The notes: generated by a model from the sequence alone, not told the origin. A DNA stretch of 25,636 nucleotides from Desulfobacteraceae bacterium (GCA_027325475.1 DAIEFO010000002.1:1-25636); one strand, 5' to 3'. Positions 234 through 18,160 are shown, counted from the stretch's first letter. Translations and numbers: made by a program.

Positions 234-1338
234 GGGCATCCTCCTGAACTTTTCCGGCGCGGGCCAGATCCTGAGCCTTTCTGAGACGATCCAGATCGGA
301 AAGAAAATCCACATAGTGCGGCAGTTTCCAGTGATTGCAGAACCCCATCGCCTCGATGCCGTCAATATGATACAGAACGAATTCCTGGTCTTCGGCGGGA
401 CACGAGGGTTTTTCAGTCCGGGTGCAGCGGTCCAGTATCGCCATGGCGATTGCCTTGATCTCGTTCTGACCGAAGCAGAGCCCATAGCCCAGACTGAAGC
501 GCGGCATGCCGTCATTTCCCTGAAAACGGGCCAGAACTTCCGCTTCCGTCACCTTGACCTCACCGGCGACATAAGGTTCTCCGGTTACCGGATGCGGCAT
601 TGTAAGCGGCAGATAGCCGATACGCAGTTCGCCCAGGGTCGGGTGGATATTCCCGTAACCGCGCATGCTGGAATAGGCCAGTGTCAGCATCCCGCCGGTT
701 TCGCCCCGGGCAAGCGCCTGCAACCGGGCGCTTCGAGGAGCCGGGAAGATGAGGGAGCGCCGGGTGATGTCAAACACCTCCTCTTCCGGGTGTGACGCCG
801 CAATGGATTCTTCCAGTAACCCTTCCCGGCGGAGAATGGCGATCACCTTTGGAAACGTGGCCGGAATTTCGGCATCGGCAGGAAGGCTGCCGAATATGCG
901 TTCACGAAAGGCATTCCGTCTCGCCGCATCATCTTTCAGCAGGTCAAAATCCAGCAGCCTCAGGGTATAATCACTGGTAGCGCCCAGAATCTGGCCACCG
1001 GGGATATCTTTAAACGCGGAGGAAATTCTTCGGACAACCCGCATCTTTTCGGCGCCAACCGGCAATGAGTAGCCAAGCCGCTGCTGGGTAGCCCGAAAGG
1101 CGCGCACCATAAAAGAGGCCTCCAACGTGTCACCGGCGGATTGTTTGAGGGCCAGAGCGGCCAGCTCCGGTGCATAGAGCGCTCCTTCCCCCATGACGCG
1201 ATCCACGGTCAGGTAGAATTGTTCCCTGATCTGGTCCACTCCCAGCACCGGGGAATTTCCCTTGATGCGCTCATAGGCAAAGAGCCGGCAGGCGTTTTCA
1301 ATAGCTTCGTTTCCACCTTTAACCGCAACATATCCCAT
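220..1338 (-). CDS. phnI: C-P lyase complex subunit PhnI (ribose 1-methylphosphonate 5-triphosphate synthase)
   Basis: 372 aa. MGYVAVKGGNEAI start, RRISSAFKDIPGGQILG, LARGETG, GYG..HPTLGELRIG, and C-terminal HWKLPHYVDF with the two Zn-binding His. Confidence 0.95.
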   Translation of the reverse strand: MGYVAVKGGNEAIENACRLFAYERIKGNSPVLGVDQIREQFYLTVDRVMGEGALYAPELAALALKQSAGDTLEASFMVRAFRATQQRLGYSLPVGAEKMRVVRRISSAFKDIPGGQILGATSDYTLRLLDFDLLKDDAARRNAFRERIFGSLPADAEIPATFPKVIAILRREGLLEESIAASHPEEEVFDITRRSLIFPAPRSARLQALARGETGGMLTLAYSSMRGYGNIHPTLGELRIGYLPLTMPHPVTGEPYVAGEVKVTEAEVLARFQGNDGMPRFSLGYGLCFGQNEIKAIAMAILDRCTRTEKPSCPAEDQEFVLYHIDGIEAMGFCNHWKLPHYVDFLSDLDRLRKAQDLARAGKVQEDAHADA

Positions 1339-1340
1339 TT

Positions 1341-1895
1341 TCAGTTCACTCCGATCTGCGATGAGCGGGGAATGCAGGCGATGCGCCCGCTCCGGTCAAG
1401 AAAAACGGCATCCACGCCAAGGGGAAATTCACGGTTCACTTCCTTTAAAAGACGCCATTCACCCGGATGAATGCCCGTAATCCGAAGTGAGGCCGTACCC
1501 TTGACCCCAGGCCCTGTCACAACAATGTCATTTCCGGCATCGCTCAGTTCTTCCACCAGATAGAGGAGGGTAGCGCCGGTATGCGGATATTCGAGGCTGC
1601 CCCGCTTGAAATGGATCAGGTTGCCGAAAGTGGCGCCATTACAGGCAACGATGAAATCCGCGTGTTCAAAAGGCACGATCCGGCTGCCGGTATGCCGGCT
1701 CAGCGCTGATTCCAGTTCCGCATCGTCAATGACGGCAAGGCTTGCTTCATTGTCCATCAGGCAGCCGAGAAGCTGGACAGCGGCAGATTCAGCTTCGGAC
1801 ACATCCGGCAAAAGATATACTTTTCCGGGGTGGCTCATCCCCTGAAGGATCACCCGGAAAGTCTCATGATCCTGGATCGTTCTATTGGTATTCAT
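1341..1895 (-). CDS. phnH: C-P lyase system protein PhnH
   Basis: 184 aa. FRVILQGMSHPG, GSLEYPHTGATL, TGPGVKG, FPLGVD..F and IPRS motifs; sits between phnG and phnI. Confidence 0.92.
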   Translation of the reverse strand: MNTNRTIQDHETFRVILQGMSHPGKVYLLPDVSEAESAAVQLLGCLMDNEASLAVIDDAELESALSRHTGSRIVPFEHADFIVACNGATFGNLIHFKRGSLEYPHTGATLLYLVEELSDAGNDIVVTGPGVKGTASLRITGIHPGEWRLLKEVNREFPLGVDAVFLDRSGRIACIPRSSQIGVN

Positions 1896-1897
1896 GA

Positions 1898-2323
1898 TCA
1901 GGCTCCCGACATCAGGTCGAAATTTACTTTTGTGGAAGCAATCAGCGCTGCGCTTTCCGCCAGTCTGCGGTTGAGCGTTACCGCCTCCTGCTTCAGACGC
2001 GCCACCAGATTTTCCTGGATTGCAGTGGGCTCAGGACACCGAAGCACCGCATCCGCCGCCGCCCGCGCCAGCGCCTTTCGGGGCGCCTCTCCCATGGCCA
2101 TGCCAAAGCCTTCACAGCCGCGAAACAAAACGCGAGCCTCTGTCACCAGAACTTCTCCCAGGTGAAAATCGGTTTCAAAGCTGTCTTTCACGGTCAACAT
2201 CACAAGCCCAGACCGTGGAGGGCAACGAATCGTCAGTTCCACACCGGCAAACAACGCCAGCAAATCTTCCACGTTTTCTTCATCCATGGCATCGATCAAA
2301 GCTGTCATATCAGCGCAATTCAT
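1898..2323 (-). CDS. phnG: C-P lyase system protein PhnG
   Basis: 141 aa. P.SGLVML, FHLGEVLVTEARV, A.ALARAAADA and TKVNF motifs; operon position. Confidence 0.9.
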   Translation of the reverse strand: MNCADMTALIDAMDEENVEDLLALFAGVELTIRCPPRSGLVMLTVKDSFETDFHLGEVLVTEARVLFRGCEGFGMAMGEAPRKALARAAADAVLRCPEPTAIQENLVARLKQEAVTLNRRLAESAALIASTKVNFDLMSGA

Positions 2324-2787
2324 TTTGTTTCACTTTCGGTTTTATTCATCATCATATAAAAGCTGTAGCCATGCTTTTCGAAACCCAGCGACTCGTAAAA
2401 ACGATGGGCAGCGTCCCGATTCCGGTTGCTGGTAAGGGACATCTTGTAGCATCCTTTTTCCCGGCAGAGACTGTTGGCATAACGCATCATCTGATGGCCG
2501 ATTCCCTGACTGCGTATTCCTTCTTCCACCACAACATCCTCAAGAATCGCTGATGGGGTTCCCATGTGGGCGATGTTGTCCAGAATTAGAAGGGCAAACG
2601 TGCCGACAATCCTGCTGTTCAGCAGGGCAATATAAATGTGATAGTCCGGATAGGTTTTCATCCGGGCAAAAATACGGCCGGCCGCCTCTAAACTGAGAAC
2701 TTTGCCGTCATCCTGCCCGAGCTGGGCATACAGCGTGAGTATGGCGGGCAAATCGGCTTCAGTTGCCTCCCGCAGGGTAATTTCCAT
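2320..2787 (-). CDS. phnO: GNAT N-acetyltransferase, PhnO-like (aminoalkylphosphonate N-acetyltransferase)
   Basis: 155 aa. GNAT acetyl-CoA motif (VVVEEGIRSQGIGHQMM) and SNRNRDAAHRFYESLGF, resembling PhnO; 4-bp overlap with phnG inside the phn operon. Exact orthology not provable by eye. Confidence 0.72.
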   Translation of the reverse strand: MEITLREATEADLPAILTLYAQLGQDDGKVLSLEAAGRIFARMKTYPDYHIYIALLNSRIVGTFALLILDNIAHMGTPSAILEDVVVEEGIRSQGIGHQMMRYANSLCREKGCYKMSLTSNRNRDAAHRFYESLGFEKHGYSFYMMMNKTESETK

Positions 2788-2802
2788 GATACGCTCCGGA
2801 GT

Positions 2803-3672
2803 TTAAGCCTTTTGATGGATGTTAGACTTCATGTGGGTGGCGATCATTTCCAGAACAATCGCAAACGCCAGTACAATATAGGTAATCAGCCCGACTTCCT
2901 TCAGATCGAAATAATATCCGCCGGCCATGAAGAGATCGAAACCGATTCCGGCAGCACCGGCGGCAGCGCCCATGGCAATGGCGTTGGCGAAGTTGATTTC
3001 AAACCGCATGAAAGTCCAGGACAGCAGATATGCAGCGGATGAAGGGATGACCGCCTGAAAGACAATCTGCCACCAGTTGGCGCCGCTGGCCGATAAGGCT
3101 TCGATAACGTTTCTGTCCAGTTCTTCAAAGGATTCGGAATAGGCTTTGGTCAGATAGCTGATGGAGTGAAACGTCATGCCGATGACTGCCGCCGCGCTGC
3201 CCAGTCCTGCGGCAACCGCAAAAATCAGGACCCATAAAATGGTGGGAATCGCCCGGATAAAAGCGACAAAACTTTTGATACAACAGGTAATCCGCCTTGG
3301 CGCCAGATTCTGAGCGCTTAACAGCCCCAGAAACAAGGCGATAACGCCGCCAAACAATGTGGTCAGAAACGCCAGACCCAGGGTGATCAGAACCTCATAA
3401 AAAGCGTCCCACAGCCCAAGACGCTGGGTGGAAGGTTCCATAAAGATGATCTTGAAGTTGTGAAGCGTATCCATTGTTGCCTTTGCAATGTCAACCCCCT
3501 GATAATCCATGGTGAACAGTGCATAAAGGGTCAATAAAGACAATGTCATCAGGAAAATCCGGATAGTGAAAGACTCCCTGTTCAGAGGCCTTCCGGAGCC
3601 AAAGATATCCGGAGAGATCATTTCATCGCTGCACAATTGTCCCCAATTGTTGATTGTTTCTTCGGTTTCCAT
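2803..3672 (-). CDS. phnE: Phosphonate ABC transporter permease
   Basis: Hydrophobic; FIRAIPTILW and EAA loop (ESFEELDRNVIEALSASGA). The ATG at 3672 overlaps the upstream stop (TGATG). Confidence 0.9.
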   Translation of the reverse strand: METEETINNWGQLCSDEMISPDIFGSGRPLNRESFTIRIFLMTLSLLTLYALFTMDYQGVDIAKATMDTLHNFKIIFMEPSTQRLGLWDAFYEVLITLGLAFLTTLFGGVIALFLGLLSAQNLAPRRITCCIKSFVAFIRAIPTILWVLIFAVAAGLGSAAAVIGMTFHSISYLTKAYSESFEELDRNVIEALSASGANWWQIVFQAVIPSSAAYLLSWTFMRFEINFANAIAMGAAAGAAGIGFDLFMAGGYYFDLKEVGLITYIVLAFAIVLEMIATHMKSNIHQKA

Positions 3673-4460
3673 CACATAATATTCCTTCGAATCATATTGG
3701 ATGCCGTTTCGATGATGATAATCGTAATGACGATCAGCATCACCACCAGACTCGCCGCATGAAAATTCATGCTCTTGTAATACAGGTCAAAGGAAAACCC
3801 GATACCGGTTCCCGTGAGAAACCCCACCAGCGTGGCGTCGCGGATATTCGTATCGATCATGAACAACAGCCAACTGATCATCTGCGGCAGGCTGGAAGGA
3901 AGAACCGCTTGAAATATGACATGGAAATAGCCGGCGCCCGTGGCTTCCAGAGCTTCAACCGCATCATGACTCACTTCGTCGATGGTTTCGATGAAAGAAC
4001 GGGTGAGAAATCCCAGAGAGCCGAAAAACAGGGCCAGATAACCTGTCAACGGGCTCTGGCTGAAAGCCAGCATCAGCACCATGGCCCAGGCTACCAGCGG
4101 AATGTTTCGAAACAGCGAAGCGATACCCCTTGCCATCACGCTGAAAAAACGGCTCATCCTCGTTGTCCGGGAACCCGCCAGCGACAGCAGAATGGCGAAA
4201 ACAGCGGCAATCGTAGTGGAAGCAATAGACATCAGCACCGTTTCCCGCAATTTCAACAAGATATCCGGCAGTTTTGCCATGGATTCGATATCCGGATAAA
4301 AATTGGAAATCCCCCAGACAAAGGCCTTGACGATACTGGTAAACCCTTTCAGCACGTCGTACCGGGTAATGATAACCGAACCAACGGTTAGAACCGCCAG
4401 TACGGCAAAGAATATCCAGCGGTCATTCCTGCGTTTGACAAAAATATCAGCCTGCTGCAT
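3672..4460 (-). CDS. phnE: Phosphonate ABC transporter permease
   Basis: 262 aa. FRNIPLVAW, EAA loop (ETIDEVSHDAVEALEATGA), NIRDATLVG..GTGIG. Confidence 0.9.
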   Translation of the reverse strand: MQQADIFVKRRNDRWIFFAVLAVLTVGSVIITRYDVLKGFTSIVKAFVWGISNFYPDIESMAKLPDILLKLRETVLMSIASTTIAAVFAILLSLAGSRTTRMSRFFSVMARGIASLFRNIPLVAWAMVLMLAFSQSPLTGYLALFFGSLGFLTRSFIETIDEVSHDAVEALEATGAGYFHVIFQAVLPSSLPQMISWLLFMIDTNIRDATLVGFLTGTGIGFSFDLYYKSMNFHAASLVVMLIVITIIIIETASNMIRRNIM

Positions 4461-5253
4461 ATCTTTCCTCTGAATCCGTCATCAGGTCTTTGGCGGTCGA
4501 ACCGTAAATATCCGATATCCGTTCGGTTGTCAGTTGATCCGGTGATCCGTCAAGAACCAGTTTCCCTTTGTTGACACCGATAATTCTGTCCGAGTATTTA
4601 AGCGCTACATTTACCTGATGCAGATTCACAATGAAGGTGATGCCCATTTCTCTGGAAATACTTCTTAGCAGATCCATAATGATTTTCGATGAATTCGGGT
4701 CCAGCGAAGAGATCGGCTCGTCACACAAAATCATTCTGGGATTTTGCACCAACGCCCTGGCGATTCCCACCCGCTGCTTCTGGCCGCCGCTTAACTGGTC
4801 GCACCGCTGATATACCTGGTCATGCAAGCCCAGGATATTGATAATGCGGTGCGCCTGCATCTTTTCTTCCTGGCTGTAACGCCCCAGAACCCCGGCCATG
4901 GTGGACTTGTACCCCAGCCTGCCGTGAAGCACGTTCTCGATGACGGTCAATCTGTCCACAAGGTTATAATGCTGGAAGATCATGCCTATTTTGGTTCTGA
5001 GTTTTCTTAAATCCCGTTTTTTCAGTTGTGAGGTGATGACACCATCGAAGCACACTTCCCCGCTGCTCACCTCGATCATCCGGTTGATACAGCGAAGAAG
5101 TGTGGATTTCCCGGAACCGGAAGGCCCTATGATGGAAATGAACTGGCCATCCATGATGGAAAAGCTGATATCAGCAAGCGCCGGCGTTGTACGGTTGTAG
5201 TACTTGATGACATTTTTCAATTCCAACAGAGGGTTACTGGTTTCTGGTGTCAT
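4447..5253 (-). CDS. phnC: Phosphonate ABC transporter ATP-binding protein
   Basis: Walker A GPSGSGKS, GMIFQHYNLVDRLTVIENVLHGRLG, signature LSGGQKQRVGIARAL, Walker B LCDEP, NLHQV. Confidence 0.93.
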   Translation of the reverse strand: MTPETSNPLLELKNVIKYYNRTTPALADISFSIMDGQFISIIGPSGSGKSTLLRCINRMIEVSSGEVCFDGVITSQLKKRDLRKLRTKIGMIFQHYNLVDRLTVIENVLHGRLGYKSTMAGVLGRYSQEEKMQAHRIINILGLHDQVYQRCDQLSGGQKQRVGIARALVQNPRMILCDEPISSLDPNSSKIIMDLLRSISREMGITFIVNLHQVNVALKYSDRIIGVNKGKLVLDGSPDQLTTERISDIYGSTAKDLMTDSEERYAAG

Positions 5254-5269
5254 ATGTTGTTAATACCCC

Positions 5270-6310
5270 TTATTTAATTCCAAGAACTTTTCTCATCGGG
5301 TCATACCAGGCATCGGTAACCTTCAGAAAACGGTGCGGCTGGACAAATACAGCCCCTTTGGCGCTTTTGGGCGCGAATATCTTCGAATCCTTGGTTACAT
5401 GCTCCGAGGTAAGCGCATGGGTGATGGCGGCGATGGTCTTTTCACTTAAAAATTCGCTGTTAACCTCAACAGGCGTGTTCAGAACGGGTATCGGCTTGAT
5501 GACAACGTACTGAGCGCCTGCAAGGCTGTTGAACGGGGCATCGGCGTCTTTGCGGATGGTATAAACGGATCCGGCTTCGTTTTCTTTTCCTTGAGTCAAC
5601 TCCACATACTGCGCCACATCAATATCGTCCACCGCCGATACATCGGATTTTCCGGTCAGCACATTGACCAAAGACAACTGGTGAGAACCCGCAAAAAGCA
5701 CCTGGCTGAAAAATTTTCCTTCGCCGCCTTGGGCCAGGTCATCTTTGGTAAGGTTTTTCCATTTGTCCTGCTGAGCGAATTGGCCCAGGATCACGGCGGC
5801 GGGCATATTGAAGCCGGATGTTGAGCTACTGGAAACAAAGGACATTCTTTTTCCGGCGATGTTGTCAATGCCATAACCGCCAGCGGATTTGTATTGGTCT
5901 TCATTGCCTTTCTTGACAAGGAATCGGCTGTAGTAAAGGGCGTCTTTCAGGGTTCCTGAATCACCGCTTTCGACCACCATCGGCAGAATTCTGGGATTGG
6001 CGGCATGAGACACCAGATACTCGTTGGGACCGAACCAGCCTATCTGAGCCTCGCCGTTTTCCAGGGCTTTGATGGCGATAATGTAATCGGTAGTCAATTT
6101 ATTCTCCACTTTTTTACCTGTGGCTTCCGAAATGATTTTGCCGAATTCTTCACGCATTACCTTCTCTTCGTTTCCCGAATTGTTCGGCAGCCAGGCAATG
6201 GTGATGGTATCGGGTTCTTTGACAGATGCGGCATGGGCAAGCGGAATGACCGTCGCCGCGCCGCAGATGGTCAGGGCAAGAGCGACAACTGTTCTGAAAA
6301 ACTGTTTCAT
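5270..6310 (-). CDS. phnD: Phosphonate/phosphite ABC transporter substrate-binding protein
   Basis: 346 aa with signal peptide (..AHA|A). TTDY, YYS, SSSTSG phosphonate-binding motif and GSH His. AAGGAG RBS; first gene of the operon. Confidence 0.88.
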   Translation of the reverse strand: MKQFFRTVVALALTICGAATVIPLAHAASVKEPDTITIAWLPNNSGNEEKVMREEFGKIISEATGKKVENKLTTDYIIAIKALENGEAQIGWFGPNEYLVSHAANPRILPMVVESGDSGTLKDALYYSRFLVKKGNEDQYKSAGGYGIDNIAGKRMSFVSSSSTSGFNMPAAVILGQFAQQDKWKNLTKDDLAQGGEGKFFSQVLFAGSHQLSLVNVLTGKSDVSAVDDIDVAQYVELTQGKENEAGSVYTIRKDADAPFNSLAGAQYVVIKPIPVLNTPVEVNSEFLSEKTIAAITHALTSEHVTKDSKIFAPKSAKGAVFVQPHRFLKVTDAWYDPMRKVLGIK

Positions 6311-6440: not shown

Positions 6441-6484
6441 TTTATAATCCGGAATTGTTAGAGGGATATTGCGGAATTGTTAGA
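6441..6484 (-). promoter_or_regulatory. Putative Pho-box-like direct repeat plus -10 for the phn operon
   Basis: A perfect 13-bp direct repeat CGGAATTGTTAGA at 6450-6462 and 6472-6484 (22-bp period = 2x11). The minus strand reads CTAACAATTCC-GCAATATCCCT-CTAACAATTCC-GGAT-TATAAA. PhoB assignment is inference. Confidence 0.5.
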
Positions 6485-6552: not shown

Positions 6553-6568
6553 TGGCATTAATATTGCT
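6553..6568 (+). promoter_or_regulatory. Sigma54 -24/-12 promoter of the aldehyde oxidoreductase operon
   Basis: TGGCATTAATATTGCT: GG-N10-GC with flanking consensus, about 95 bp upstream of the ATG at 6663. Confidence 0.8.
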
Positions 6569-6662: not shown

Positions 6663-9326
6663 ATGAAACGGATAGCGTTAACCATCAACGGCGCAAAACA
6701 TGAATTTGTAGTCGGCCCGGAACGGGTGCTGCTGGATTTGCTGCGTGATGACCTCGGACTGACAGGCGCCAAACAGTCCTGCGACCGAAAAGGTCAGTGC
6801 GGCGCTTGCATGGTGATTGTGAACGGCAAAACGGTGCTTTCCTGCCTGACAAAGGTCTATACCCTGGAAGAGGCGGAGGTGATTACTGTGGAAGGGCTGG
6901 GTACTCCGGAAAATCCTCACCTCATTCAGCAAGCATTCGTTCTGGCGGGCGCCATTCAGTGCGGATACTGCACTCCCGGCATGATCATGGCGGCCAAGAC
7001 GCTGCTGGACGCCTGTCCGGATCCTTCTGTCGAAGACATCAAAAAAGGATTGTCACGGAACCTGTGCCGATGCACCGGTTATAAAAAAATAATCGAAGCC
7101 GTCCAGTTGGCTGGCAGGTTCATCCGCGGCGAAATCACTCCGGATGCCGTATGTCCGACTTCCGACGACAAGTCCATGGGCGTTTGTCATCCCCGGCCAT
7201 CGGCCTTGGCCAAAGCTTGCGGTACGGCGCATTTCACCGCCGATATCCGACTGAAAAACGCTCTGGAGCTGGCGGTTCTCAGGAGTCATCTTCCCCATGC
7301 CCGCATTGTTTCCATCGACGCCACTGAAGCGCTTGCCATGCCCGGGGTTGCCGGCGTTGTGACCGCGGCTGACGTCAAAGGTTCCAATATCCTGAAATAT
7401 ATCGTGGCGGACCGGCCGGTGCTGTGCAAAGACAAGGTCCGCTACATCGGGGATCCGATTTTGATAGTGGGGGCTGAAACAAAAGCGCAGGCGGAGGCGG
7501 CGATTTCGGTTGTCCGGGTTGAACTGGAACCTTTGCCGGTCATGAGCTGTCCGGAAGATTCCCTTGGACCCGACGCTGTCAGTGTTCATGACGAGCTTCC
7601 CAATCTCTGCTTTCAGCAGCCCCAGATCAAGGGAGATGCCGAAACAGCCCTTAAAAATTCCGACGCTGTCATCGAAGCACAATTCAAAACGCAGATCAAT
7701 CACCAGGCTCCCCTGGAGCCTGAAGCAGCAGTAGCTTACTGGGAAGATCCTGGGGAAGGCGAAGATCCAACGCTGGTGATCGTCAGCCGCAGTATCAACA
7801 TCCATCTGCACCTTGCAATGCTTCAGGCCGCCCTCGGCTGGGAAAATATGCGTTACCGGGAGGCCTATTCCGGGGGGCAGTTCGGTATCCGGATCGATGT
7901 GATTTCGGAAGGAATTGCGGGCGCCGCCGCCATCCATTTCAAACGGGCTGTGCGCTACATTCCGAGTATCGCCGAAAGTATGCTGATGAGTTCCAAGCGT
8001 CATTCCTTCAAGATGCACGTCAGGATGGGCGCGGACAGCCACGGAAAGCTGACGGCTTACTGTAACGATATCCTGATTGACAAAGGGGCCTATTATTCCA
8101 TTGGTCATGTGGTGCTGCACAGGTCTCTGCTCATGCTCTCAGGTTCTTACCATATTCCCAATATCCAGGCGATGGGAAGGCTTGTTTACACCAACAACCC
8201 CTGGGGCAGTGCAGCCAGGGGTGCCGGTCCTCCTCAGACCAATTTTGCCCTCGAATGCGCTATGGATATGCTGGCGGATAAGATCGGCATGGATCCGTTT
8301 GAATTTCGTCTGCTGAATTCGCTTCAACCTGGTCAGAGTAAATCCACGGGGCGAGTGGTCGATATGTGGTGTTTCCCTGAACTCATGGAAGCCATGCGAC
8401 CCCATTACGAGAGAGCGGTCAGAGAAGCCAAAGCGATGTCCTCCGGCCGAATCCGGCGAGGGGTTGGCATAGGCGCCGGGGCTTTCGGCATAGGCGGGCC
8501 GGGCGATGTTTCGGTGGCTGCGGTCGAACTGGATGCGGACGGCGGCGTCAGTGTCTATGCCGCTGCCGCCGACCCGGGCGAAGGCAATGATTCCATGCTG
8601 AGCCAGTTAACGGCCGCCTTTATGAATATCCCTCTGCGTAAGGTGCGGCTCCACACCCGGGATACGAATAACACCGCAGCCAGCGGCCCGGCTGCCGGCA
8701 GTCGCATCACATATATGATCGGCGGGGCGCTGATCAACGCACTGGAACAATTGAAAGCCGCCATGCAGGAAACCGGAGCCAGAACTTCCGTTGAGCTGGA
8801 AACTGCCGGTAAATCTAAACGTTACCTGGGACGGAAGAAAAATGAAGACGCCGGCCCCCTGGATCCGCAGACAGGGCAGGGGCCGTCCTTTGAATCCCAG
8901 GTGCATGCCGTACAGATGGTCGAGCTGGAAGTGGACACCGAAACCGGCCAGGTTGTTATTCGCAAAATGACAACCGCCGTGGATGCCGGGCGGGTCATCA
9001 ATCCGCAGAACCTGACCGGCCAGCTTGAAGGCGGTATGGATATGGGCGTCGGATTTGCGCTCCGGGAAGAATATGTGGCCGGAAAGACCAGAGACTGGGT
9101 CAGCTTTAAATTCCCGACGATCCGGACAAGTTTTGAGATGGAAACCCTGATCCGTGAAACGCCAAGACCTAAAGGCCCTCTGGGCGCCACCGGCATCGGT
9201 GAGATGTGTATGGTCCCCACAGCTCCGGCCGTTATCAACGCCATCAGGAACGCCGCTGGTATCTGGATATGCGATCAGCCGGCCACGCGGGAAAAAATCA
9301 AGGCCGCCCTGAATCCAGAGAAATGA
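6663..9326 (+). CDS. mop: Molybdopterin-dependent aldehyde oxidoreductase, Mop/xanthine-oxidase family (2x[2Fe-2S] + Mo domain, no FAD domain)
   Basis: Start moved from 6552 to ATG 6663 (AAGGAG RBS; the upstream ORF part overlaps the promoter). CDRKGQCGAC...C and QCGYCTPG...CRCTGY Fe-S motifs; GGQFG, RGAG.PQ, GEG, SR and GIGE (catalytic Glu) Mo-domain motifs; about 887 aa, like Desulfovibrio Mop. Confidence 0.9.
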   Translation: MKRIALTINGAKHEFVVGPERVLLDLLRDDLGLTGAKQSCDRKGQCGACMVIVNGKTVLSCLTKVYTLEEAEVITVEGLGTPENPHLIQQAFVLAGAIQCGYCTPGMIMAAKTLLDACPDPSVEDIKKGLSRNLCRCTGYKKIIEAVQLAGRFIRGEITPDAVCPTSDDKSMGVCHPRPSALAKACGTAHFTADIRLKNALELAVLRSHLPHARIVSIDATEALAMPGVAGVVTAADVKGSNILKYIVADRPVLCKDKVRYIGDPILIVGAETKAQAEAAISVVRVELEPLPVMSCPEDSLGPDAVSVHDELPNLCFQQPQIKGDAETALKNSDAVIEAQFKTQINHQAPLEPEAAVAYWEDPGEGEDPTLVIVSRSINIHLHLAMLQAALGWENMRYREAYSGGQFGIRIDVISEGIAGAAAIHFKRAVRYIPSIAESMLMSSKRHSFKMHVRMGADSHGKLTAYCNDILIDKGAYYSIGHVVLHRSLLMLSGSYHIPNIQAMGRLVYTNNPWGSAARGAGPPQTNFALECAMDMLADKIGMDPFEFRLLNSLQPGQSKSTGRVVDMWCFPELMEAMRPHYERAVREAKAMSSGRIRRGVGIGAGAFGIGGPGDVSVAAVELDADGGVSVYAAAADPGEGNDSMLSQLTAAFMNIPLRKVRLHTRDTNNTAASGPAAGSRITYMIGGALINALEQLKAAMQETGARTSVELETAGKSKRYLGRKKNEDAGPLDPQTGQGPSFESQVHAVQMVELEVDTETGQVVIRKMTTAVDAGRVINPQNLTGQLEGGMDMGVGFALREEYVAGKTRDWVSFKFPTIRTSFEMETLIRETPRPKGPLGATGIGEMCMVPTAPAVINAIRNAAGIWICDQPATREKIKAALNPEK

Positions 9327-9329
9327 ACC

Positions 9330-9689
9330 ATGGATGTGCACCCAACCGGCAATTCGCCCCAGAACCCCGGCCCATGGGTGCGCATCATCGACGGGCGGAA
9401 AATCCTGTTTGACCGGGATGGATATCTGAATGATTTCGATGACTGGTCGGAATCCGTTTTTGAAATTCTGGCCAACGAACTGGGGCTGATTCAAATAACG
9501 GCCCCACACCGGCAGGTCATTCGGTTTCTACGGGAATTTTACGCCTATCACGGACGAGCCCCGCTGAACCGTCAGCTCCGGGAGGGAACCGGCCTGACGG
9601 TGATGGAGATCGAAAAACTGTTTCCGGGCGGGCTGAAAGAAGGCGCCCGCCGGCTTGCCGGTCTTCCCAACCCCAAAACCTGCAACTGA
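9330..9689 (+). CDS. tusE: TusE/DsrC-family sulfur relay protein (terminal Cys only)
   Basis: 119 aa. DRDGYL.DFDDWSE, HRQVIRFLREFY, LFPGG..GA.RLAGLPNPKTC. The position 11 residues before the terminal Cys (the second Cys of true DsrC) is Arg. Confidence 0.85.
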   Translation: MDVHPTGNSPQNPGPWVRIIDGRKILFDRDGYLNDFDDWSESVFEILANELGLIQITAPHRQVIRFLREFYAYHGRAPLNRQLREGTGLTVMEIEKLFPGGLKEGARRLAGLPNPKTCN

Positions 9690-9705
9690 ACAGAGGGGCA
9701 ATCTC

Positions 9706-10866
9706 ATGGAACCTTCTCCACTCATTTATATGGACAACGCCGCCACTTCCTACCCCAAGCCCGCCGATTGTCTGAATCGCGCACTTCTCCGATATCTGAA
9801 GCTCGGGGCGTCTCCCGGTCGGGGGGGATACGATCTGGCTCAGGAAGCCGAAGAGGCTGTATCTGAAATTCGAAACCGCTTGCGGCACTTCTTCGGCGCT
9901 GCTCCGGACTGGCCGCTTTGCTTCGCTGCGAACGCCACCGATGCGCTCAACACCTTGATTCAGGGGATGACCGAACCCGGCGATCATGTGGTCAGCACCC
10001 GCCTGGAGCACAACTCCGTGTTGAGGCCACTGAACCACCTGCGTGAAAATGGCCGGATCACATTCGATCTTGCCCGGTTCGATACCGATGGATTCGTGGA
10101 TCCAAGTGAAATTAGAGCGCTTATCCAATCCAAAACCCGCCTGGTAATTCTCAACCACGCGTCCAATGTCCTGGGTACGGTTCAGCCGGTTGCCGCCATT
10201 GGTCGAATCTGCCGTGATGCGGGTATTTCTCTGGTGATAGATGTTTCACAGAGTGCCGGGGTCATTCCTGTCGCTATGAAGGACTGGGGGGTTTCCGCCC
10301 TGGCTTTCACGGGTCACAAATCTTTGATGGGGCCCTCCGGCATCGGTGGTCTTGTCATCCGTCCAGACATTGCAATCCGTCCAATTCGCTTCGGCGGTAC
10401 GGGTATCGATTCTGCCAATCCCTTTCATACAAAAGAGTTTCCATACCGGCTTGAAGCCGGCACACTGAATCTTCTGGGAATCCTGGGGCTGGGTGAGTCT
10501 CTGTCTTTTCTGGAAGAACAGGAAGCCGGTGGATTCCGCGCCCTGGAAATGGCGCTGACCCGGCAGCTCATAGACGGATTTTCCGAAATTGACGGCGTCA
10601 CCCTGTATGCCGCCAGAAGCCTTGAAAATCATATTCCGCTGTTAAGCTGCAACGTGAATGGAATTGCAGCATCGGATGCCGCAGCCGTTCTGGACGGCGA
10701 CTTCAATATTGCCGTGCGCGCCGGCCTGCACTGTGCTCCTCTGGTGCACGAAAGTCTCGGCACAGCCTCCGGGGGCGCTATCCGTTTCAGCCTCGGTGTA
10801 TTCAATCAACTGTCGGACATCGAAGCCGCTGTCCATGCCATGTCGATCATCGCCGGAAGCGCTTGA
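9706..10866 (+). CDS. Cysteine desulfurase-family PLP enzyme (class V aminotransferase, SufS-like/EF2568-type)
   Basis: Start at ATG 9706 (GAGGGG RBS). IYMDNAATSYPKP, EHNSV, HASNVLG, PLP-Lys TGHK and catalytic RAGLHCAP. Confidence 0.88.
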   Translation: MEPSPLIYMDNAATSYPKPADCLNRALLRYLKLGASPGRGGYDLAQEAEEAVSEIRNRLRHFFGAAPDWPLCFAANATDALNTLIQGMTEPGDHVVSTRLEHNSVLRPLNHLRENGRITFDLARFDTDGFVDPSEIRALIQSKTRLVILNHASNVLGTVQPVAAIGRICRDAGISLVIDVSQSAGVIPVAMKDWGVSALAFTGHKSLMGPSGIGGLVIRPDIAIRPIRFGGTGIDSANPFHTKEFPYRLEAGTLNLLGILGLGESLSFLEEQEAGGFRALEMALTRQLIDGFSEIDGVTLYAARSLENHIPLLSCNVNGIAASDAAAVLDGDFNIAVRAGLHCAPLVHESLGTASGGAIRFSLGVFNQLSDIEAAVHAMSIIAGSA

Positions 10867-10911: not shown

Positions 10912-10927
10912 TGGTATGCAACTTGCT
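10912..10927 (+). promoter_or_regulatory. Sigma54 -24/-12 promoter of the large glutamate dehydrogenase gene
   Basis: TGGTATGCAACTTGCT: GG-N10-GC, about 60 bp upstream of the ATG at 10986. Confidence 0.75.
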
Positions 10928-10985: not shown

Positions 10986-13900
10986 ATGAACCATCCCCCA
11001 CCCGAACGTCCCAATGTGCAGTCCCAAGGGGCATACATCATCCACAAGGCCCAAAGCGTCAAACTCAATCCCAGCACCCTGTACGAGGCGGTGATTGATT
11101 TGTCCGCCGAAGGGCTGCTGACGGCCAACTGCATTAATATGGCCGCCGGTATCCTGCTGGACGATCTGGGGCTTCCGACGTATTTTTTCGAAAACATCCA
11201 GAAGGAATCTCTGAAGCATATTCTGGCCTCCATCGCCACCAACCTGACGGTTGATGACAGCGGACAGGTTGTTCTGGTGGGCCGGGTGGCACACATCGAT
11301 TTCAGCCTGGAGCAAGGCGGCAGCAATGTGCAGCGGGTACGTATCGCCACACAGGAAACCCGGGACAGCATGGAAAAAATTCTGGAGAATATGCTCCCCG
11401 GTCACCGGCGGGAATATTATTACAGCTTCAAAAGTCAGTACTATACTTACATCATCCGACCGGAAACAGTGCAGGATTTTCCCCGGAACGCTTTCAGGGA
11501 TTCGCGGTTTCTGTTTGCCTTAGCCGGTGACTATGCGATCACACCGGAGGCCACGCGAAGGCGGTATGAAAACTTCCTGAAATCTTATGAAAAAAATGTC
11601 AGCCCTCTGATTGAAGTGTTCAATCTGTCCGATACCGAAGAAACGCGTCTGATGTTCAACAGCGATTTTGCATCTCCGCAACTGCCCGTTCTCCGGAAAT
11701 TGATTGCGGATCACGATCTGGTGCTCAGCCGCGCTTATTGGGAACCTTACTGCGGCAAATCTTCCTGCGCTTCCTCCATCTGTTCCCTGTACATCCTGGG
11801 AGAGCTTTCCAGAAAGAAAGAGTCGGCGTTATTACGCGATTTATGCGCTTTTCTGGCCTTCAACATCAACCGGATCACGGACAGTTATGTTCGAGGAGAT
11901 CTGAGCTTCCAGGAAATGCTGTTTGCCGGTAACGCCGTGGATTTTACCCATATGTTCATTTTCAAGGAACGTGATAACGCCACAGACCGTGAAATTCTGA
12001 ACAGCCTGACCGGAAAGGATCACCGGGAAGCGTTTGCCGCCCGGATTCATGGTTCCAACAAGTCCGCCTACGTTCATAAAGAAATTCTGGAAGCGGCCAT
12101 GGAAAATCCGGATATAGTGAGATCCCTTTACGATCTCTTCGAACAAAGGTTTAATCCGGATATGAAAAATCGGATTTCATCCGCCGAGCTTGAGAAAAAA
12201 TTTCAGAAATTCGACAAGACGCTCTCCCACCGGTTCATGGACAACTGGCTCTATGCCGATATTTTCCGCTTTATGTTCAAGCTGATGTCCCGCCTGTTGA
12301 AAACCAATTTCTACAAAACCGAAAAACGATCTTTCGCTTTTCGCTTCGACAATGCGGTGCTGGATCCGCTAGTGTTCGAGCAGTTCGTTTACGGTGTTTT
12401 TTTTGTCAATGGCCACTATTCTTGCGGTACTCATCTGCGGGCTGCGGACATCGCCCGGGGAGGGCTGCGGCTTATCCGGGTGTCCGCCGCCAATCACGCT
12501 ACTGAACTGGACAATGCTCTTCTTCTGAATTATGCGCTCGGCCCCAAAGCCCAGAGGCTGAAACACAAGGATATCTGTGAAAGCGGCTCCAAGGGGGTGG
12601 TTGTGCCGCATGCCATTTACGCCGCTCAGGGAATGGACGCTCTCTTTGATTACACGGAAGGCGTCATGGATCTGGTGATGGGCGATGAGCGTATCATCGA
12701 CGATTACGGTCTGCCTGAGATGATTTTTTTCGGGCCGGACGAAGGCACCGCGCCTTTGATGGATGCGGTAGCAGTGCGGTGCCGGGACCGCGGTTACCGG
12801 TACTGGCGTACGATCGCCACCGGAAAGAGCACCGGCATTCCCCATGACACGTACGGAATTCTGAAAACAGGTGAAATTTTTGGGTTGATCGGCAATATCG
12901 CCGATGGCGTCGATCTTCAAATCGAAGGGGTCAGCGTTGCCGCCACTGCCGATATGGATATTCTTTATAACCGGATCGGCAATCAGATCGTTTCCAGCGG
13001 CATGACCACCACCGGTATTATGGGATCCTTTCGGACACTGATTTCTCATTACGGGTTCAAGGAGCAAGAACTCAATCTGATGATGACCGGCGGTCCGGAT
13101 GGGGATTTAGGCGCCAATCAGATACAGTGCTACCACGGCAAAATCTGCCTGCTCATTGACGGCGGCGCCATCCTTTTTGATCCCGATGGTCTGGACCGGG
13201 AAGCTCTGATGAAAATCGCTTTCATGCGGCATACTTCTCCCCGGGCTGATTCCCGGTCGTTCCCGGAGAATAAGCTGAGCGCCCGCGGGTTCAAGGTGAT
13301 GGTTGACGCCAGAAACGTGCGTCTGCCGGATGGTACCCTTGTTGAAGACGGCGCCTTGTTTCACCGTGACTTTTTGTCCAATCCGGAAAATCGTCGATTC
13401 ATTCAGGATGCCGACATACGGGCGTTTATTCCCTGCGGCGGCTTCAAAGACACGATCAACCGGAACAATGTCAGGGCTTTTCTAAACCTGTTTCAGGAAA
13501 TCAGGTTCATCGTCGAAGGCGCCAATGTCTTTTTTGATGACGCCGCACGCCGGGCCATTGCGGCTACTTCCATTAAACACATCAAGGATACCACCGCCAA
13601 CAAGGGCGGTGTTTTTTCAAGCTCTGTGGCCGAGGTACTGACCGCATTTCTGTTGCAGGAAGACTATGAAACAGCCCTGCTGGATGATATCGGAACGCGG
13701 TGGGCGCTCATCCGCGATATCCTGACGCTGGTGGATCGGTATGCCCGGGCCGAAACTCAAATGCTGCTCCGGATTCATGAAACCAATCCGTCTGTTCCCC
13801 TTTTCGAGCTTTCAGAGATAACCAGTGAACAGATTTTCGCGCTCCAGCAGATTTGCGATCAACACCTGGATATTATCCTGTCCGATGAAGAGCGGGTGTG

Positions 13901-14141
13901 GGCTGTTATGGAGCAGTACATCCCGACGATTCTCATCCAGCGGCTGGGGCGCGCCTCCATTCTCAATACGTTTCAGGCAGAAGACCTCAAACCCTATAGA
14001 AATGCCATTCTTACCAAGAAACTGGCTTCACTGGCGTTTTATACCTTCGGCGTTGAATGGCAGGCGTTGATGAACCGGGTGGTCGCCGATTTCAATGACG
14101 GATTTCAGTTTATCTGTGAAACCATCTCGCCCGCACCCTGA
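10986..14141 (+). CDS. gdh: Large NAD-specific glutamate dehydrogenase (~115-kDa, fungal Gdh2-like class)
   Basis: 1051 aa. DIARGGLR, KHKDICESGSKG, FFGPDEGTA, TGKS..GIPHDTYG, TGGPDGDLGANQI, FIPCGG, IVEGANVF and KDTTANKGGV.SSS follow the large NAD-GDH motif series. GAGGAG RBS. Confidence 0.88.
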   Translation: MNHPPPERPNVQSQGAYIIHKAQSVKLNPSTLYEAVIDLSAEGLLTANCINMAAGILLDDLGLPTYFFENIQKESLKHILASIATNLTVDDSGQVVLVGRVAHIDFSLEQGGSNVQRVRIATQETRDSMEKILENMLPGHRREYYYSFKSQYYTYIIRPETVQDFPRNAFRDSRFLFALAGDYAITPEATRRRYENFLKSYEKNVSPLIEVFNLSDTEETRLMFNSDFASPQLPVLRKLIADHDLVLSRAYWEPYCGKSSCASSICSLYILGELSRKKESALLRDLCAFLAFNINRITDSYVRGDLSFQEMLFAGNAVDFTHMFIFKERDNATDREILNSLTGKDHREAFAARIHGSNKSAYVHKEILEAAMENPDIVRSLYDLFEQRFNPDMKNRISSAELEKKFQKFDKTLSHRFMDNWLYADIFRFMFKLMSRLLKTNFYKTEKRSFAFRFDNAVLDPLVFEQFVYGVFFVNGHYSCGTHLRAADIARGGLRLIRVSAANHATELDNALLLNYALGPKAQRLKHKDICESGSKGVVVPHAIYAAQGMDALFDYTEGVMDLVMGDERIIDDYGLPEMIFFGPDEGTAPLMDAVAVRCRDRGYRYWRTIATGKSTGIPHDTYGILKTGEIFGLIGNIADGVDLQIEGVSVAATADMDILYNRIGNQIVSSGMTTTGIMGSFRTLISHYGFKEQELNLMMTGGPDGDLGANQIQCYHGKICLLIDGGAILFDPDGLDREALMKIAFMRHTSPRADSRSFPENKLSARGFKVMVDARNVRLPDGTLVEDGALFHRDFLSNPENRRFIQDADIRAFIPCGGFKDTINRNNVRAFLNLFQEIRFIVEGANVFFDDAARRAIAATSIKHIKDTTANKGGVFSSSVAEVLTAFLLQEDYETALLDDIGTRWALIRDILTLVDRYARAETQMLLRIHETNPSVPLFELSEITSEQIFALQQICDQHLDIILSDEERVWAVMEQYIPTILIQRLGRASILNTFQAEDLKPYRNAILTKKLASLAFYTFGVEWQALMNRVVADFNDGFQFICETISPAP

Positions 14142-15757: not shown

Positions 15758-15773
15758 CGCAAGGAATATACCA
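15758..15773 (-). promoter_or_regulatory. Sigma54 -24/-12 promoter of gabT
   Basis: The minus strand reads TGGTATATTCCTTGCG: GG-N10-GC, pointing to gabT. Confidence 0.7.
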
Positions 15774-16064
15774 GTTTGTCATTTGCCGGGCTCAGGTTGC
15801 TGAATATAAGACAATCCTCCGATCAGCCTGTTTTCTGTTCGTTTGGCCCGGATTCCTTCTCGAAATTGCGACTTCAGCCATCTCCGACCATGAAAAATGA
15901 ACTCTTTATCATAACAGGTAACGCTCATTGCCGTTTGGGGGTCTGGAAGAATCCAATGCAGGGGCTGGCTCAAGCCAAGTTGAATGTCCGCAAGCTGCAT
16001 TATGCGCCTCTGGATATTATATGAAGCCTTCAAGATTTCGTACAGAGAGCATAAGAATGTAAAG

Positions 16065-16092
16065 TTGCATATATTATGCAGATGTGCATAAT
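16065..16092 (+). promoter_or_regulatory. Possible sigma70 promoter of the regulator gene, overlapping the upstream palindrome
   Basis: TTGCAT (16065-16070) - 16 nt - CATAAT (16087-16092). Confidence 0.35.
16075..16090. promoter_or_regulatory. Putative enhancer (UAS) palindrome 1
   Basis: TATGCA-GATG-TGCATA; same arms and spacing as 18141-18156. Confidence 0.6.
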
Positions 16093-16106: not shown

Positions 16107-16289
16107 GAGGGTTTTGAAAAAGTTCGCAGGCAAGATGGATGTCCTCGTAAAAAGTCGATTTGGGGACGGCTTTGTAAAAAGTTCGCAGGCAAGGCGCGCA
16201 AATCCTGAGGGATGAAGCGTACTTTTGGATACGCTGCAATGACGAAGGATGCGGCGCAACGCAGCATCCGGACTTTTTACAAAGCCGTC
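16107..16289 (+). repeat. Stack of repeat termini plus a full 125-bp TIR element
   Basis: Truncated left end 16107-16134; 27-bp leader 16138-16164; core 16165-16289 with perfect 18-bp TIRs GACGGCTTTGTAAAAAGT / ACTTTTTACAAAGCCGTC and internal hairpins. Confidence 0.88.
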
Positions 16290-16344
16290 AATTTTAAGAT
16301 GCTGGAAAATCAGGACGTTGTTTTCAAAAATGGAGAAATCACCA

Positions 16345-18138
16345 ATGCAGAACGAATCTCTGCCCATATCATTCTTATCACCCGCCGAGGCGTGGATATA
16401 TATGTCTGTCCTGTCAAACATTCGGGAAGCGGTTGTTGCGGTTCTTCCGACCGGGGTGATCGGTTACGTCAACCCTGCGGCGTCCGCCGCTTTCGGGCTG
16501 ACGCTTGGTATCCAATTTGAATCAAAGTTTCCTGAACTGAAACAACCGCTGATGCGTGTCCTCAAGAGTCGCCAGGATTGCCTGAATGTTAATATCACCA
16601 TTGATCGGTGCGAATATCAGGTCAATCTCTATGCGCTCCGTGAACAGGACCAACCGATCTGGGCGGTGTGCATTTTGGAAAATCATACCGAAATGAACCG
16701 GACAATTCAACAAATGCTGTCATTTCAAGAACTTTCTCGTGAGCTTGACACAATCATCGACGCCGCTTATGACGGACTGTGGATTTGCGACGCCAATGCC
16801 ACAGTTCTTCGGATCAACGCCGCTTCCGAGCGTCTGAACAATCTTCGGGCATCCGAAGTGGTCGGCCGCAATATGTCGGATTTAATTGCCGAGGGGTTTA
16901 TCAACCGGTCTGCGACGCTGGAAGTGATCAAAACCGGTAAAACAGCCACACTGCTTCAAAACACGGGCACAGGCCGCAAACTCATGATTACGGGCAATCC
17001 CATTTTCGATGAAACCGGTCAATTGGTGCGCGTTGTCGTGAATGAACGGGACATCACGGAAATTGACGCCCTGCACGAAGCGTTACAGCATCAGGAGGCC
17101 ATCAAGAATCAGTATCGGAATCACATGCTTGAAATGCAGCTTGCGGAAATGGAGTCCCGCCGGATTATCGCCCGGAGTCCCTGTATGACCAAACTTCTTC
17201 AGCAGGCTATCAAGGTCAGCAAGGTGGATTCAACGGCCATCATCCTGGGAGAGTCTGGAGCCGGCAAGGAATTGGTCGCCGATCTCATCCATAAGCACTC
17301 GAAAAGGGCAACCCAGCCCATGATCAAGATCAACTGCGGCGCCATCCCTGAATCGCTGGTCGAGTCCGAACTCTTTGGTTATGAAAAAGGCGCCTTCACC
17401 GGTGCTCAAAAACAGGGAAAACCTGGATATCTGGAACTGGCCCAGGACGGCATGCTGTTCCTGGACGAGGTTGCGGAGCTTCCTCTGGCTTCGCAGGTCA
17501 AGCTTCTTCGGTTTCTGGAAGACGGCATGGTCTGCCGTGTCGGTGGTGTGAAGAGCTACAAGCTCAACGTCCGCATCCTGACTGCCACCAACCGGGACCT
17601 CAAAGAAATGGTGCGAACCGGTGCTTTCCGAAAAGATCTGTTTTATCGGCTGCACGTCATTCCTCTCCATGTACCGCCCTTGAGAGAGCGAACCGAGTGT
17701 ATTCTGCCGCTGCTCCATCACTACCTTCATTATTTCACCGATAAAATCGGTAAAACCGGATTTATTCGCCTTTCCAAACCGGTTACGGACATCCTTCTTT
17801 CGTATCCTTATCCCGGAAATGTCCGTGAGCTGATCAATATCTGTGAACGAGCGGTTGTCATGTGTGACGGCGAGTGGATATCTCTGGACGATCTGCCTCG
17901 GGACGTAACCGATGCCGCCAATTCCAAGGAAATCTTCGATATGGTGAATTTATCCTGTTGCTCCCTCAAGGAACTCATGGAAAACTTCGAACGTTCCGTG
18001 CTGGTCAAAGCCACCGCTCAGTACGCCACCCAGAAAAAGATCGCCGCAGCCCTGGGGGTCAATCAGGCCACCATCGCACGGAAATTGAAACGATACGCCG
18101 TCCCCTTGAACGCATTCAGAGAGTTTGCTGCGCACTGA
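16345..18138 (+). CDS. PAS-domain sigma54-dependent transcriptional activator (bEBP)
   Basis: Start moved to ATG 16345 (GGAGA RBS; the ORF-track extension lies in the repeat). Two PAS-like segments, Walker A GESGAGKE, intact ESELFGYEKGAFTGA, LFLDEV, RKDLFYRL, YPGNVREL, C-terminal HTH. No receiver domain. Confidence 0.92.
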   Translation: MQNESLPISFLSPAEAWIYMSVLSNIREAVVAVLPTGVIGYVNPAASAAFGLTLGIQFESKFPELKQPLMRVLKSRQDCLNVNITIDRCEYQVNLYALREQDQPIWAVCILENHTEMNRTIQQMLSFQELSRELDTIIDAAYDGLWICDANATVLRINAASERLNNLRASEVVGRNMSDLIAEGFINRSATLEVIKTGKTATLLQNTGTGRKLMITGNPIFDETGQLVRVVVNERDITEIDALHEALQHQEAIKNQYRNHMLEMQLAEMESRRIIARSPCMTKLLQQAIKVSKVDSTAIILGESGAGKELVADLIHKHSKRATQPMIKINCGAIPESLVESELFGYEKGAFTGAQKQGKPGYLELAQDGMLFLDEVAELPLASQVKLLRFLEDGMVCRVGGVKSYKLNVRILTATNRDLKEMVRTGAFRKDLFYRLHVIPLHVPPLRERTECILPLLHHYLHYFTDKIGKTGFIRLSKPVTDILLSYPYPGNVRELINICERAVVMCDGEWISLDDLPRDVTDAANSKEIFDMVNLSCCSLKELMENFERSVLVKATAQYATQKKIAAALGVNQATIARKLKRYAVPLNAFREFAAH

Positions 18139-18160
18139 TATATGCAATATTGCATATATC
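18137..18160. promoter_or_regulatory. Putative enhancer (UAS) palindrome 2
   Basis: Perfect 24-bp palindrome GATATATGCAATATTGCATATATC with core TATGCA-N4-TGCATA, overlapping the regulator stop codon. Confidence 0.7.

Follow-up and report, generated by a model that had tools for sequence, protein, structure and literature searches.

To our knowledge, the way in which the catalytically essential terminal sulfido or selenido ligand gets to the buried molybdenum in xanthine-oxidase-family proteins has been worked out in just a few cases, namely XdhC/NifS4 and the eukaryotic molybdenum cofactor (Moco) sulfurase. Members of the xanthine oxidase family normally need an equatorial Mo=S ligand. Precedents for sulfuration of Moco by way of a desulfurase and a carrier are XdhC/NifS4 and FdhD/IscS (PMC10609526). 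In Rhodobacter capsulatus xanthine dehydrogenase (XDH; XdhC with NifS4) and in E. coli PaoABC (PaoD) the route is specific to the system, and a NifS-type desulfurase supplies the sulfido ligand of Moco (PMC10609526, PMC2997495). In E. coli formate dehydrogenase the small dedicated sulfurtransferase FdhD, with a cysteine on a flexible element, takes sulfur from the desulfurase IscS to the Mo cofactor (PMC10609526). Here we describe a stretch of 25,636 nucleotides (the window) from a Desulfobacteraceae bacterium (GCA_027325475.1, DAIEFO010000002.1:1-25636). It is contig C222 in the metagenome-assembled genome (461 contigs, 68% complete) of a sulfate reducer. Three adjacent genes in the window (the triad) encode a Mop-like molybdenum hydroxylase, a small DsrC-fold protein with a single cysteine (the carrier), and a desulfurase. 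The triad probably marks an undescribed route for sulfur, possibly selenium, onto the molybdenum center of the enzyme. Our preferred reading, to which we assign a probability of about 0.55, is that the triad works as a single unit that matures and repairs the molybdenum hydroxylases of one specific Mop-like clade. The computational evidence consists of gene linkage and conservation, the single-cysteine arm, clade specificity, and a predicted interface in the substrate tunnel.

The triad and its promoter are laid out as follows:

6553..6567, + strand: sigma-54 -24/-12 promoter element TGGCATTAATATTGC (pattern TGGCAT-N5-TTGC), 96 nt before the ATG of the Mop-like gene
6663..9326 (ATG to TGA), + strand: Mop-like MCD-type molybdenum oxidoreductase, 887 aa (Pfam, NCBIfam, tree)
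9330..9689 (ATG to TGA), + strand: single-cysteine DsrC/TusE-family carrier, 119 aa (PF04358, TIGR03342)
9706..10866 (ATG to TGA), + strand: pyridoxal phosphate-dependent EF2568/SclA-family desulfurase or selenocysteine lyase, 386 aa (TIGR01977, PF00266)

The genes are co-directional, with a gap of 3 nt between the Mop-like and carrier genes and of 16 nt between the carrier and desulfurase genes, the latter containing a GAGGGG ribosome site before the desulfurase ATG. A previous reading made from the DNA alone (the sequence-only reading) had described three genes 3 and 16 bp apart under one sigma-54 promoter, and the coordinates, the gaps and the site at 6553-6567 agree with it. We infer that the triad is one transcription unit because the next sigma-54 site, at 10912, falls between the desulfurase stop codon and the next gene.

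Compared with XdhC/NifS4, the triad carrier is a 119-aa protein of the DsrC fold that has no Moco-binding Rossmann domain, and the prediction has it acting on the enzyme after folding, by way of the substrate tunnel, whereas XdhC acts on free Moco before insertion. In addition, XdhC coexists elsewhere in triad genomes; an XdhC/PaoD gene next to the structural genes, the mark of XdhC-dependent sulfuration, is missing from the window locus. The IscS-FdhD system differs in that its enzyme belongs to the Mo-bis-pyranopterin guanine dinucleotide family, its carrier has another fold, and FdhD itself binds the cofactor.

The three proteins and their closest described relatives

The Mop-like protein has the single-chain architecture of the xanthine oxidase family (Pfam domains Fer2, Fer2_2, a/b hammerhead, MoCoBD_1, and MoCoBD_2). 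These five domains place it in that family together with the catalytic Glu, which is present in the motif GIGE(M), aligns with Glu869 of the Desulfovibrio gigas aldehyde oxidoreductase (DgAOR, or Mop), and is invariant as E847 in 38 relatives. DgAOR is the closest solved relative (1sij/1vlb, 600 bits) and resembles the triad enzyme in architecture, in the conserved catalytic Glu, and in neighbors suggesting aldehyde oxidation. The best NCBIfam model, NF045668 (Mop aldehyde oxidoreductase), gave 775.6 bits and thus fell below its cut-off of 1100, whereas true D. gigas-type Mop orthologs scored 1636-1698 bits. The second-best model, selenium-dependent XDH TIGR03311, was also below its cut-off (563 bits, cut-off 830). 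The same genome (G000) encodes a classic D. gigas-type Mop as well (1101 bits for the C-terminal two thirds), which is split over two contigs (C149:2008-3873 and C295:1-1068; L090, L099) with neither carrier nor desulfurase adjacent. More generally, no carrier or desulfurase gene was found within 1.5 kb of D. gigas-type Mop orthologs, that of the same genome included, or of more distant paralogs.

The carrier is a member of the DsrC/TusE/DsvC superfamily (PF04358 (DsrC), 85.2 bits, cut-off 24.9; TIGR03342, 72.5 bits, cut-off 53.5). Its C-terminus is GARRLAGLPNPKTCN, with the tail GLPNPKTCN, and the arm GARRLAGLPNPKTC-N bears the penultimate Cys118. It is not a DsrC proper, as the CysB position of two-cysteine DsrC (GACKMAGLPKPTGC) is occupied by Arg in the carrier and in nearly all of its 80 relatives, among which the arm GARRLxGLPNPKxC is almost invariant. 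Comparison with solved DsrC proteins and with the DsrC of the same genome bore out the claim of the sequence-only reading that this DsrC-fold protein keeps only the terminal cysteine (GLPNPKTC). With CysB replaced, a trisulfide/disulfide cycle of the DsrC type is impossible, and carriage of a persulfide is still possible. Matches to the carrier at E < 1e-5 comprised more than 600 proteins of approximately 118 aa with an almost invariant tail. The closest solved relatives were the DsrC chains 2xsj_C and 2v4j_C (about 70 bits), and the TusE-type chain 7syb gave 35 bits. A separate canonical two-cysteine DsrC, 39% identical to the carrier, is kept in the same genome and serves sulfite reduction.

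Two described proteins share the fold. DsrC has the same GLPxPxxC swinging arm, and this arm reaches into the deep catalytic channel of DsrAB, a large redox enzyme; the triad carrier differs in having one cysteine and in being partnered with a molybdoenzyme, not a sirohaem enzyme. E. coli TusE, from the IscS-TusA-TusBCD-TusE-MnmA pathway of tRNA 2-thiolation, is like the carrier a single-cysteine PF04358 member, and the carrier would hold a persulfide as TusE does. Unlike TusE, the carrier scored only 50.6 bits on the equivalog model NF008562 (cut-off 191), is distant from 7syb, and has a Mo enzyme as its genomic partner. None of five genomes (that of the window, three 98-100% complete genomes of the same genus, and a Syntrophobacter chromosome) gave a match to PF04077 (TusB/DsrH), which makes an E. 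coli-type tRNA relay unlikely.

The desulfurase scored 402.3 bits on TIGR01977 (EF2568 family, cut-off 377) and 273.7 bits on PF00266. It has the catalytic loop GLHCAP and the motif EHNS, which were retained in 64 and 63, respectively, of 67 orthologs from triads, and its closest solved relatives are SufS-type desulfurases. The sequence-only reading had likewise described a desulfurase that keeps GLHCAP, and had mentioned that EF2568-type desulfurases occur with selenium-dependent Mo hydroxylases. In the Enterococcus faecalis EF2568/SclA locus, too, a TIGR01977 desulfurase adjoins a hydroxylase that combines Fer2, Fer2_2, and MoCoBD in a single chain (PMC2276186). SelD, YqeB, YqeC, and a SirA-like protein are encoded there and a DsrC-like carrier is not, whereas the triad has the carrier and its close relatives lack YqeB.

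This resemblance raises the possibility that the same relay delivers selenium. The desulfurase would then be a selenocysteine lyase, the carrier would hold Cys-S-Se(-), and the product would be a labile Mo=Se ligand, formed independently of YqeB and YqeC. Labile ligands of this kind are found in nicotinate dehydrogenase and in clostridial purine hydroxylases. EF2568, the founding and only characterized member of TIGR01977, is SclA, which is specific for L-selenocysteine and comes from a selenium-dependent hydroxylase locus (PMC2276186; bioRxiv 10.1101/2020.02.07.939272). Selenium-dependent XDH is the second-best family of the enzyme, Sec-type SelD was present in 9 of 10 triad genomes tested, and the near-invariant Asn of EHNS stands at the position of the selectivity residue (D146 in hSCL, H100 in SclA; placed via the EHxS motif). 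Nevertheless, we consider selenium delivery unlikely. The model of the selenocysteine lyase SclA, NF040779, gave only 296.3 bits against a cut-off of 525, and TIGR03311 was also well under its own cut-off. Three same-genus genomes of 98-100% completeness were without YqeB, which in Desulfotruncus sits in another locus; no correlation of the triad with yqeB was seen. By the criteria of Haft and Self (2008), the locus does not qualify as a selenium-dependent molybdenum hydroxylase system (TIGR03311 563/830 bits, YqeB in 0/3 same-genus genomes); SelD is present. The occurrence of SelD is uninformative since this gene is near-ubiquitous in such anaerobes, and one triad genome showed none. The Asn at the selectivity position predicts nothing known. 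In the preferred reading the delivered element is presumed to be sulfur rather than selenium.

Linkage of the carrier to one enzyme clade

A carrier-first survey of one genome per species (185,579 species) yielded 182 carrier-encoding stretches, and the counts given here refer to the best 80 of the 182. A Mop-like gene was present in 80/80 loci; in 76 of them it immediately precedes the carrier gene in the same orientation, often with a 4-nt overlap. The desulfurase was present in 69/80; seven of the 11 loci without it stop at a contig edge, and the other four (L031, L080, L085, L086) are truly without it within the flanks. The gene order was Mop-carrier-desulfurase in most loci and desulfurase-Mop-carrier in a Syntrophobacteraceae-type group. 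Hosts belonged to at least four phyla: Thermodesulfobacteriota, Bacillota (Desulfotruncus arcticus DSM 17038, L082), Chloroflexota, and Actinomycetota. Some genomes had two or three copies, and in multi-copy genomes each paralogous enzyme retained its own carrier (L052/L072/L085, L044/L084, L130/L136). No further gene family was common to more than 13 of the 80 loci. The variable neighbors were Fe-alcohol dehydrogenases, aldehyde dehydrogenases, class III aminotransferases, FdhA-like proteins, parts of molybdate transporters, and MocA-like cytidylyltransferases; the MocA-like and molybdate-transport genes of some loci represent Moco supply. The carrier subfamily occurs essentially only beside this one enzyme clade.

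These counts bear on the hypothesis that the carrier and desulfurase serve some other sulfur demand, such as [2Fe-2S] assembly, synthesis of the molybdopterin dithiolene, or tRNA thiolation, and are merely co-expressed with the enzyme. All these pathways are supplied by class V desulfurases, the E. coli pathway of tRNA thiolation includes a TusE-family protein, and the enzyme itself needs Fe-S clusters and molybdopterin sulfur. Against this, the carrier subfamily adjoined this one enzyme clade in 76 of 80 loci, and nothing else consistently. Other Fe-S and Moco enzymes, including the sister Mop paralogs, are without such partners, TusBCD is lacking, the TusE equivalog score is low, and the contact predicted below lies at the Mo domains and tunnel, not at the Fe-S domains (residues 1-150). 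We regard this hypothesis as very improbable.

Enzyme-first samples, in which the Mop-like protein of the window was the query, were unbiased by the carrier. Among 100 genomes of the class, each at least 90% complete, six had a close homolog, and the carrier was present in five of the six; these included all four same-genus genomes. In a sample of 400 genomes from the phylum, an enzyme of at least 53% identity was encoded at 22 loci, 14 with the carrier and 8 without. In a maximum-likelihood tree of 71 sequences (quick method, midpoint root), 52 carrier-linked and 8 carrier-less enzymes formed one clade (SH-aLRT 99, stem length 0.53), with the D. gigas-type Mop as its sister. Because the carrier-less enzymes nest inside the carrier-linked clade, at least four changes of carrier state are needed. 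The simplest reading of the tree is a single carrier gain at the base of the clade followed by several losses. In one case of carrier loss (G462) the genome also has a second, complete triad. In one genus (g104; L138-L140, L144) a gene of the class V aminotransferase type, distant and approximately 30% identical to the triad desulfurase, comes after that of the carrier-less enzyme, and no DsrC-like gene is present.

Predicted docking and the proposed sulfur relay

A complex of the full enzyme with carrier residues 20-119 was predicted from our own alignments in three runs, along with three controls. The prediction reached an ipSAE of 0.65 (runs 0.08, 0.71, and 0.65), and the best of the three controls 0.00. 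The mark applied to such predictions is reached by 58 of 80 solved complexes and by 2 of 110 mismatched pairs, a calibration that is roughly applicable here, as own alignments were used. Runs 2 and 3 had 91% of contacts in common. On the carrier side the predicted interface (74 contacts) includes the arm, 113-118, and two loops, 34-37 and 72-81; on the enzyme side it includes residues 411, 480, 483, 614-620, 668-678, and 718-731. Alignment to DgAOR equates 411, 480, and 483 with Phe425, Phe494, and Leu497, the latter two of which presumably line the substrate tunnel. Phe425 stacks on benzaldehyde bound in the active site of DgAOR (PMC4726530). The prediction places the carrier's C-terminal cysteine arm in the substrate tunnel, where it would touch the Phe425-equivalent residue. 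The carrier interface residues R76, N80, N114, and K116 are invariant in the carrier-linked clade and different in DsrC; likewise, N395, V618, A672, and A673 on the enzyme side are invariant in this clade and different in other Mop-like groups. No Mop-DsrC complex was found among the solved relatives of the enzyme or the carrier, and the prediction is therefore unlikely to be recall of a known complex.

We propose that the maturation and repair unit may operate in four steps. The desulfurase would take sulfur from L-cysteine to form a persulfide on the GLHCAP cysteine, and this sulfur would pass to Cys118 on the flexible C-terminal arm of the carrier. The carrier would then dock on the Mo domains of the enzyme, its arm threading down the substrate tunnel, and finally the terminal sulfur would be transferred to the buried molybdenum, forming or restoring the equatorial Mo=S ligand. 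The formation of the persulfide and both transfer steps are presumed, and we assume that the carrier-linked enzyme clade needs the sulfido ligand. The logic resembles that of XdhC/NifS4 and FdhD/IscS, and the geometry that of DsrC entering DsrAB. A more specific version, to which we give somewhat less than even odds, is that the carrier acts as a "sulfur syringe," whose persulfidated or selenylated arm reaches through the tunnel of the folded, Moco-containing enzyme to install or repair Mo=S/Se in situ, independently of XdhC and MOCOS.

A search of open-access full text found no paper describing the association of a DsrC/TusE-type carrier with an aldehyde oxidoreductase or with Moco sulfuration. 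If the proposal is true, the triad would be a third solution to Moco sulfuration, independent of XdhC and MOCOS, and the DsrC fold would have a new role that is neither respiratory nor in tRNA modification. The three-gene module would also be a route to fully sulfurated recombinant enzymes of this family, which are often obtained as inactive desulfo forms. For annotation, "TusE/DsrC" matches beside molybdoenzymes should be taken to mark neither sulfite reduction nor tRNA thiolation.

In another reading the carrier, loaded by the desulfurase, would not mature the enzyme but share in its work. It could be a subunit in stoichiometric amount, a gate, or a co-substrate that presents (per)sulfide on a protein, with its arm in the active site during turnover. 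Possible chemistries would be thiocarboxylate formation or a transfer of sulfane sulfur coupled to aldehyde oxidation. Translational coupling (4-nt overlaps or a 3-nt gap) suggests 1:1 synthesis, paralogous enzymes each keep their own carrier, and the large interface fills the substrate tunnel in a manner that resembles DsrC, the substrate of DsrAB. However, an arm that fills the tunnel would block access of the aldehyde, and no known chemistry of the xanthine oxidase family uses a protein persulfide. The alcohol dehydrogenase and aminotransferase neighbors speak for aldehyde oxidation of the ordinary kind. The carrier has been lost repeatedly with the enzyme retained, which fits an accessory factor for maturation or repair better than an obligatory subunit. 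We therefore find a working partner improbable.

Several observations weigh against a maturation and repair unit. XdhC was found elsewhere in 10/10 triad genomes tested, and within 8 kb of the triad in only 5/80 loci. Profile matches revealed no XdhC, TusA, or TusBCD gene among the genes of the window, and this statement of the sequence-only reading stands for the window; for the cell it does not hold, as XdhC is present. Use of the triad as a marker of XdhC-free genomes was rejected for the same reason. The relay need therefore not replace XdhC, and with this known sulfuration and insertion chaperone present in all ten genomes a second system is not obviously needed. One complete genome (G038) encodes an enzyme of the clade and no carrier anywhere, and has a full XdhC and a MocA-like gene 3.3 kb away; no other locus seen had XdhC close to the enzyme where the carrier and desulfurase would stand. 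With at least four losses inside the clade the carrier is not indispensable. The low first run of the complex prediction, and the fact that a prediction is not binding, count in the same direction, as does the selenocysteine specificity of SclA. Moreover, the sulfide in which sulfate reducers live can restore sulfur to such enzymes by a chemical route. DgAOR, the nearest enzyme to have been studied, needs no sulfido ligand to work (PMC10223205).

The last point can be turned around. The sequence-only reading had mentioned a sulfido-independent D. gigas Mop in connection with this enzyme, and that protein proves to be a different one, of a sister clade without partners, which the host genome encodes as well. 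As the sulfido-independent DgAOR belongs to the partner-free sister clade, its behavior, if anything, makes a link between the partners and the sulfido ligand more credible. The D. gigas-type Mop is thus a natural contrast to the triad enzyme, and the comparison could explain a long-standing oddity of that model enzyme. On balance, the minimal desulfurase-to-TusE-to-Moco relay put forward in the sequence-only reading gains from the conservation of the triad, its clade specificity, the tunnel prediction, and the lack of TusBCD, and loses from XdhC elsewhere in the genomes and from at least four carrier losses.

Some further XdhC genes were recorded. Substitution by XdhC wherever the carrier is lost was tried as a rule and fits G038 only, since 0/8 other carrier-less loci had XdhC within 8 kb. 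In G038 (L111, G038:C1, 3264-10364) the genes next to the carrier-less enzyme encode XdhC, a MocA-like cytidylyltransferase, a histidine phosphatase, and an aldehyde dehydrogenase. In a same-genus genome (L102, G018:C118, 5560-6813) the neighbors of an orphan full-length XdhC are an AMP-binding enzyme, a radical SAM protein, and a methyltransferase, none of them a Mo enzyme. In two loci of Chloroflexota (L079, 9556-11649; L061, 10033-11245) a MocA-like NTP-transferase with a fused HD domain comes after the triad, as do small proteins consisting of the XdhC N-terminal domain only.

Probable sigma-54 control and neighboring genes

The relaxed pattern TGGYAY-N5-TTGC had four matches in the window, compared with 0.23 expected, and 0 of 100 shuffles reached four. 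All four sites are intergenic and just upstream of operons:

6553-6567, + strand: TGGYAY-N5-TTGC site (triad)
10912-10926, + strand: TGGYAY-N5-TTGC site
15759-15773, - strand: TGGYAY-N5-TTGC site
18454-18468, + strand: TGGYAY-N5-TTGC site
16249..18138, + strand: PAS-domain sigma-54 enhancer-binding protein (Pfam and NCBIfam matches)

Comparable sigma-54 sites precede the Mop-like gene in the loci of close relatives (L011, L012, L015, L017). The PAS-domain enhancer-binding protein is likely the activator of the four sigma-54 promoters of the window, that of the triad included, and its gene neighbors the triad also in the close relatives L008, L012, L015, and L017. The other three sigma-54 units encode a 1051-aa protein resembling glutamate dehydrogenase, an aminotransferase of the 4-aminobutyrate type, and a branched-chain (amino-acid-type) ABC transporter. 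About a dozen loci have this aminotransferase next to the triad, and alcohol dehydrogenases occupy its place in other genomes. The four units are a compact sigma-54 regulon, probably for amino-acid catabolism via an aldehyde, in which the Mop-like enzyme probably oxidizes an amino-acid-derived semialdehyde. A CoA transferase gene lies close to these units. The 1051-aa protein (10986-14141) had weak matches to ELFV_dehydrog and Bac_GDH_CD and no NCBIfam match; this unusually large glutamate-dehydrogenase-like enzyme with its own sigma-54 promoter adjoins the triad also in L008, L012, and L017.

Among sequencing runs, no RNA run contained the window; only five DNA metagenome runs did, of which four came from mine drainage and the fifth from hot springs. 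A direct repeat of exactly matching 12-nt copies, GGAATTGTTAGA, is present at 6451-6462 and 6473-6484, 22 nt apart and approximately 70-100 nt upstream of the sigma-54 site of the triad, and is a possible candidate for an activator binding site. The idea of common upstream activator sites for all four sigma-54 promoters was dropped, as none of the other three has this repeat. The activator gene is flanked on either side by AT-rich palindromes, ATATATGCAATATTGCATATAT (18140-18161) and TGCATATATTATGCA (16064-16080), which may be operator or activator sites. Positions 1-6310, on the - strand, hold part of a phosphonate C-P lyase operon unrelated to the triad, with the phnCDEE transporter, a GNAT acetyltransferase, and phnG, phnH, and phnI.

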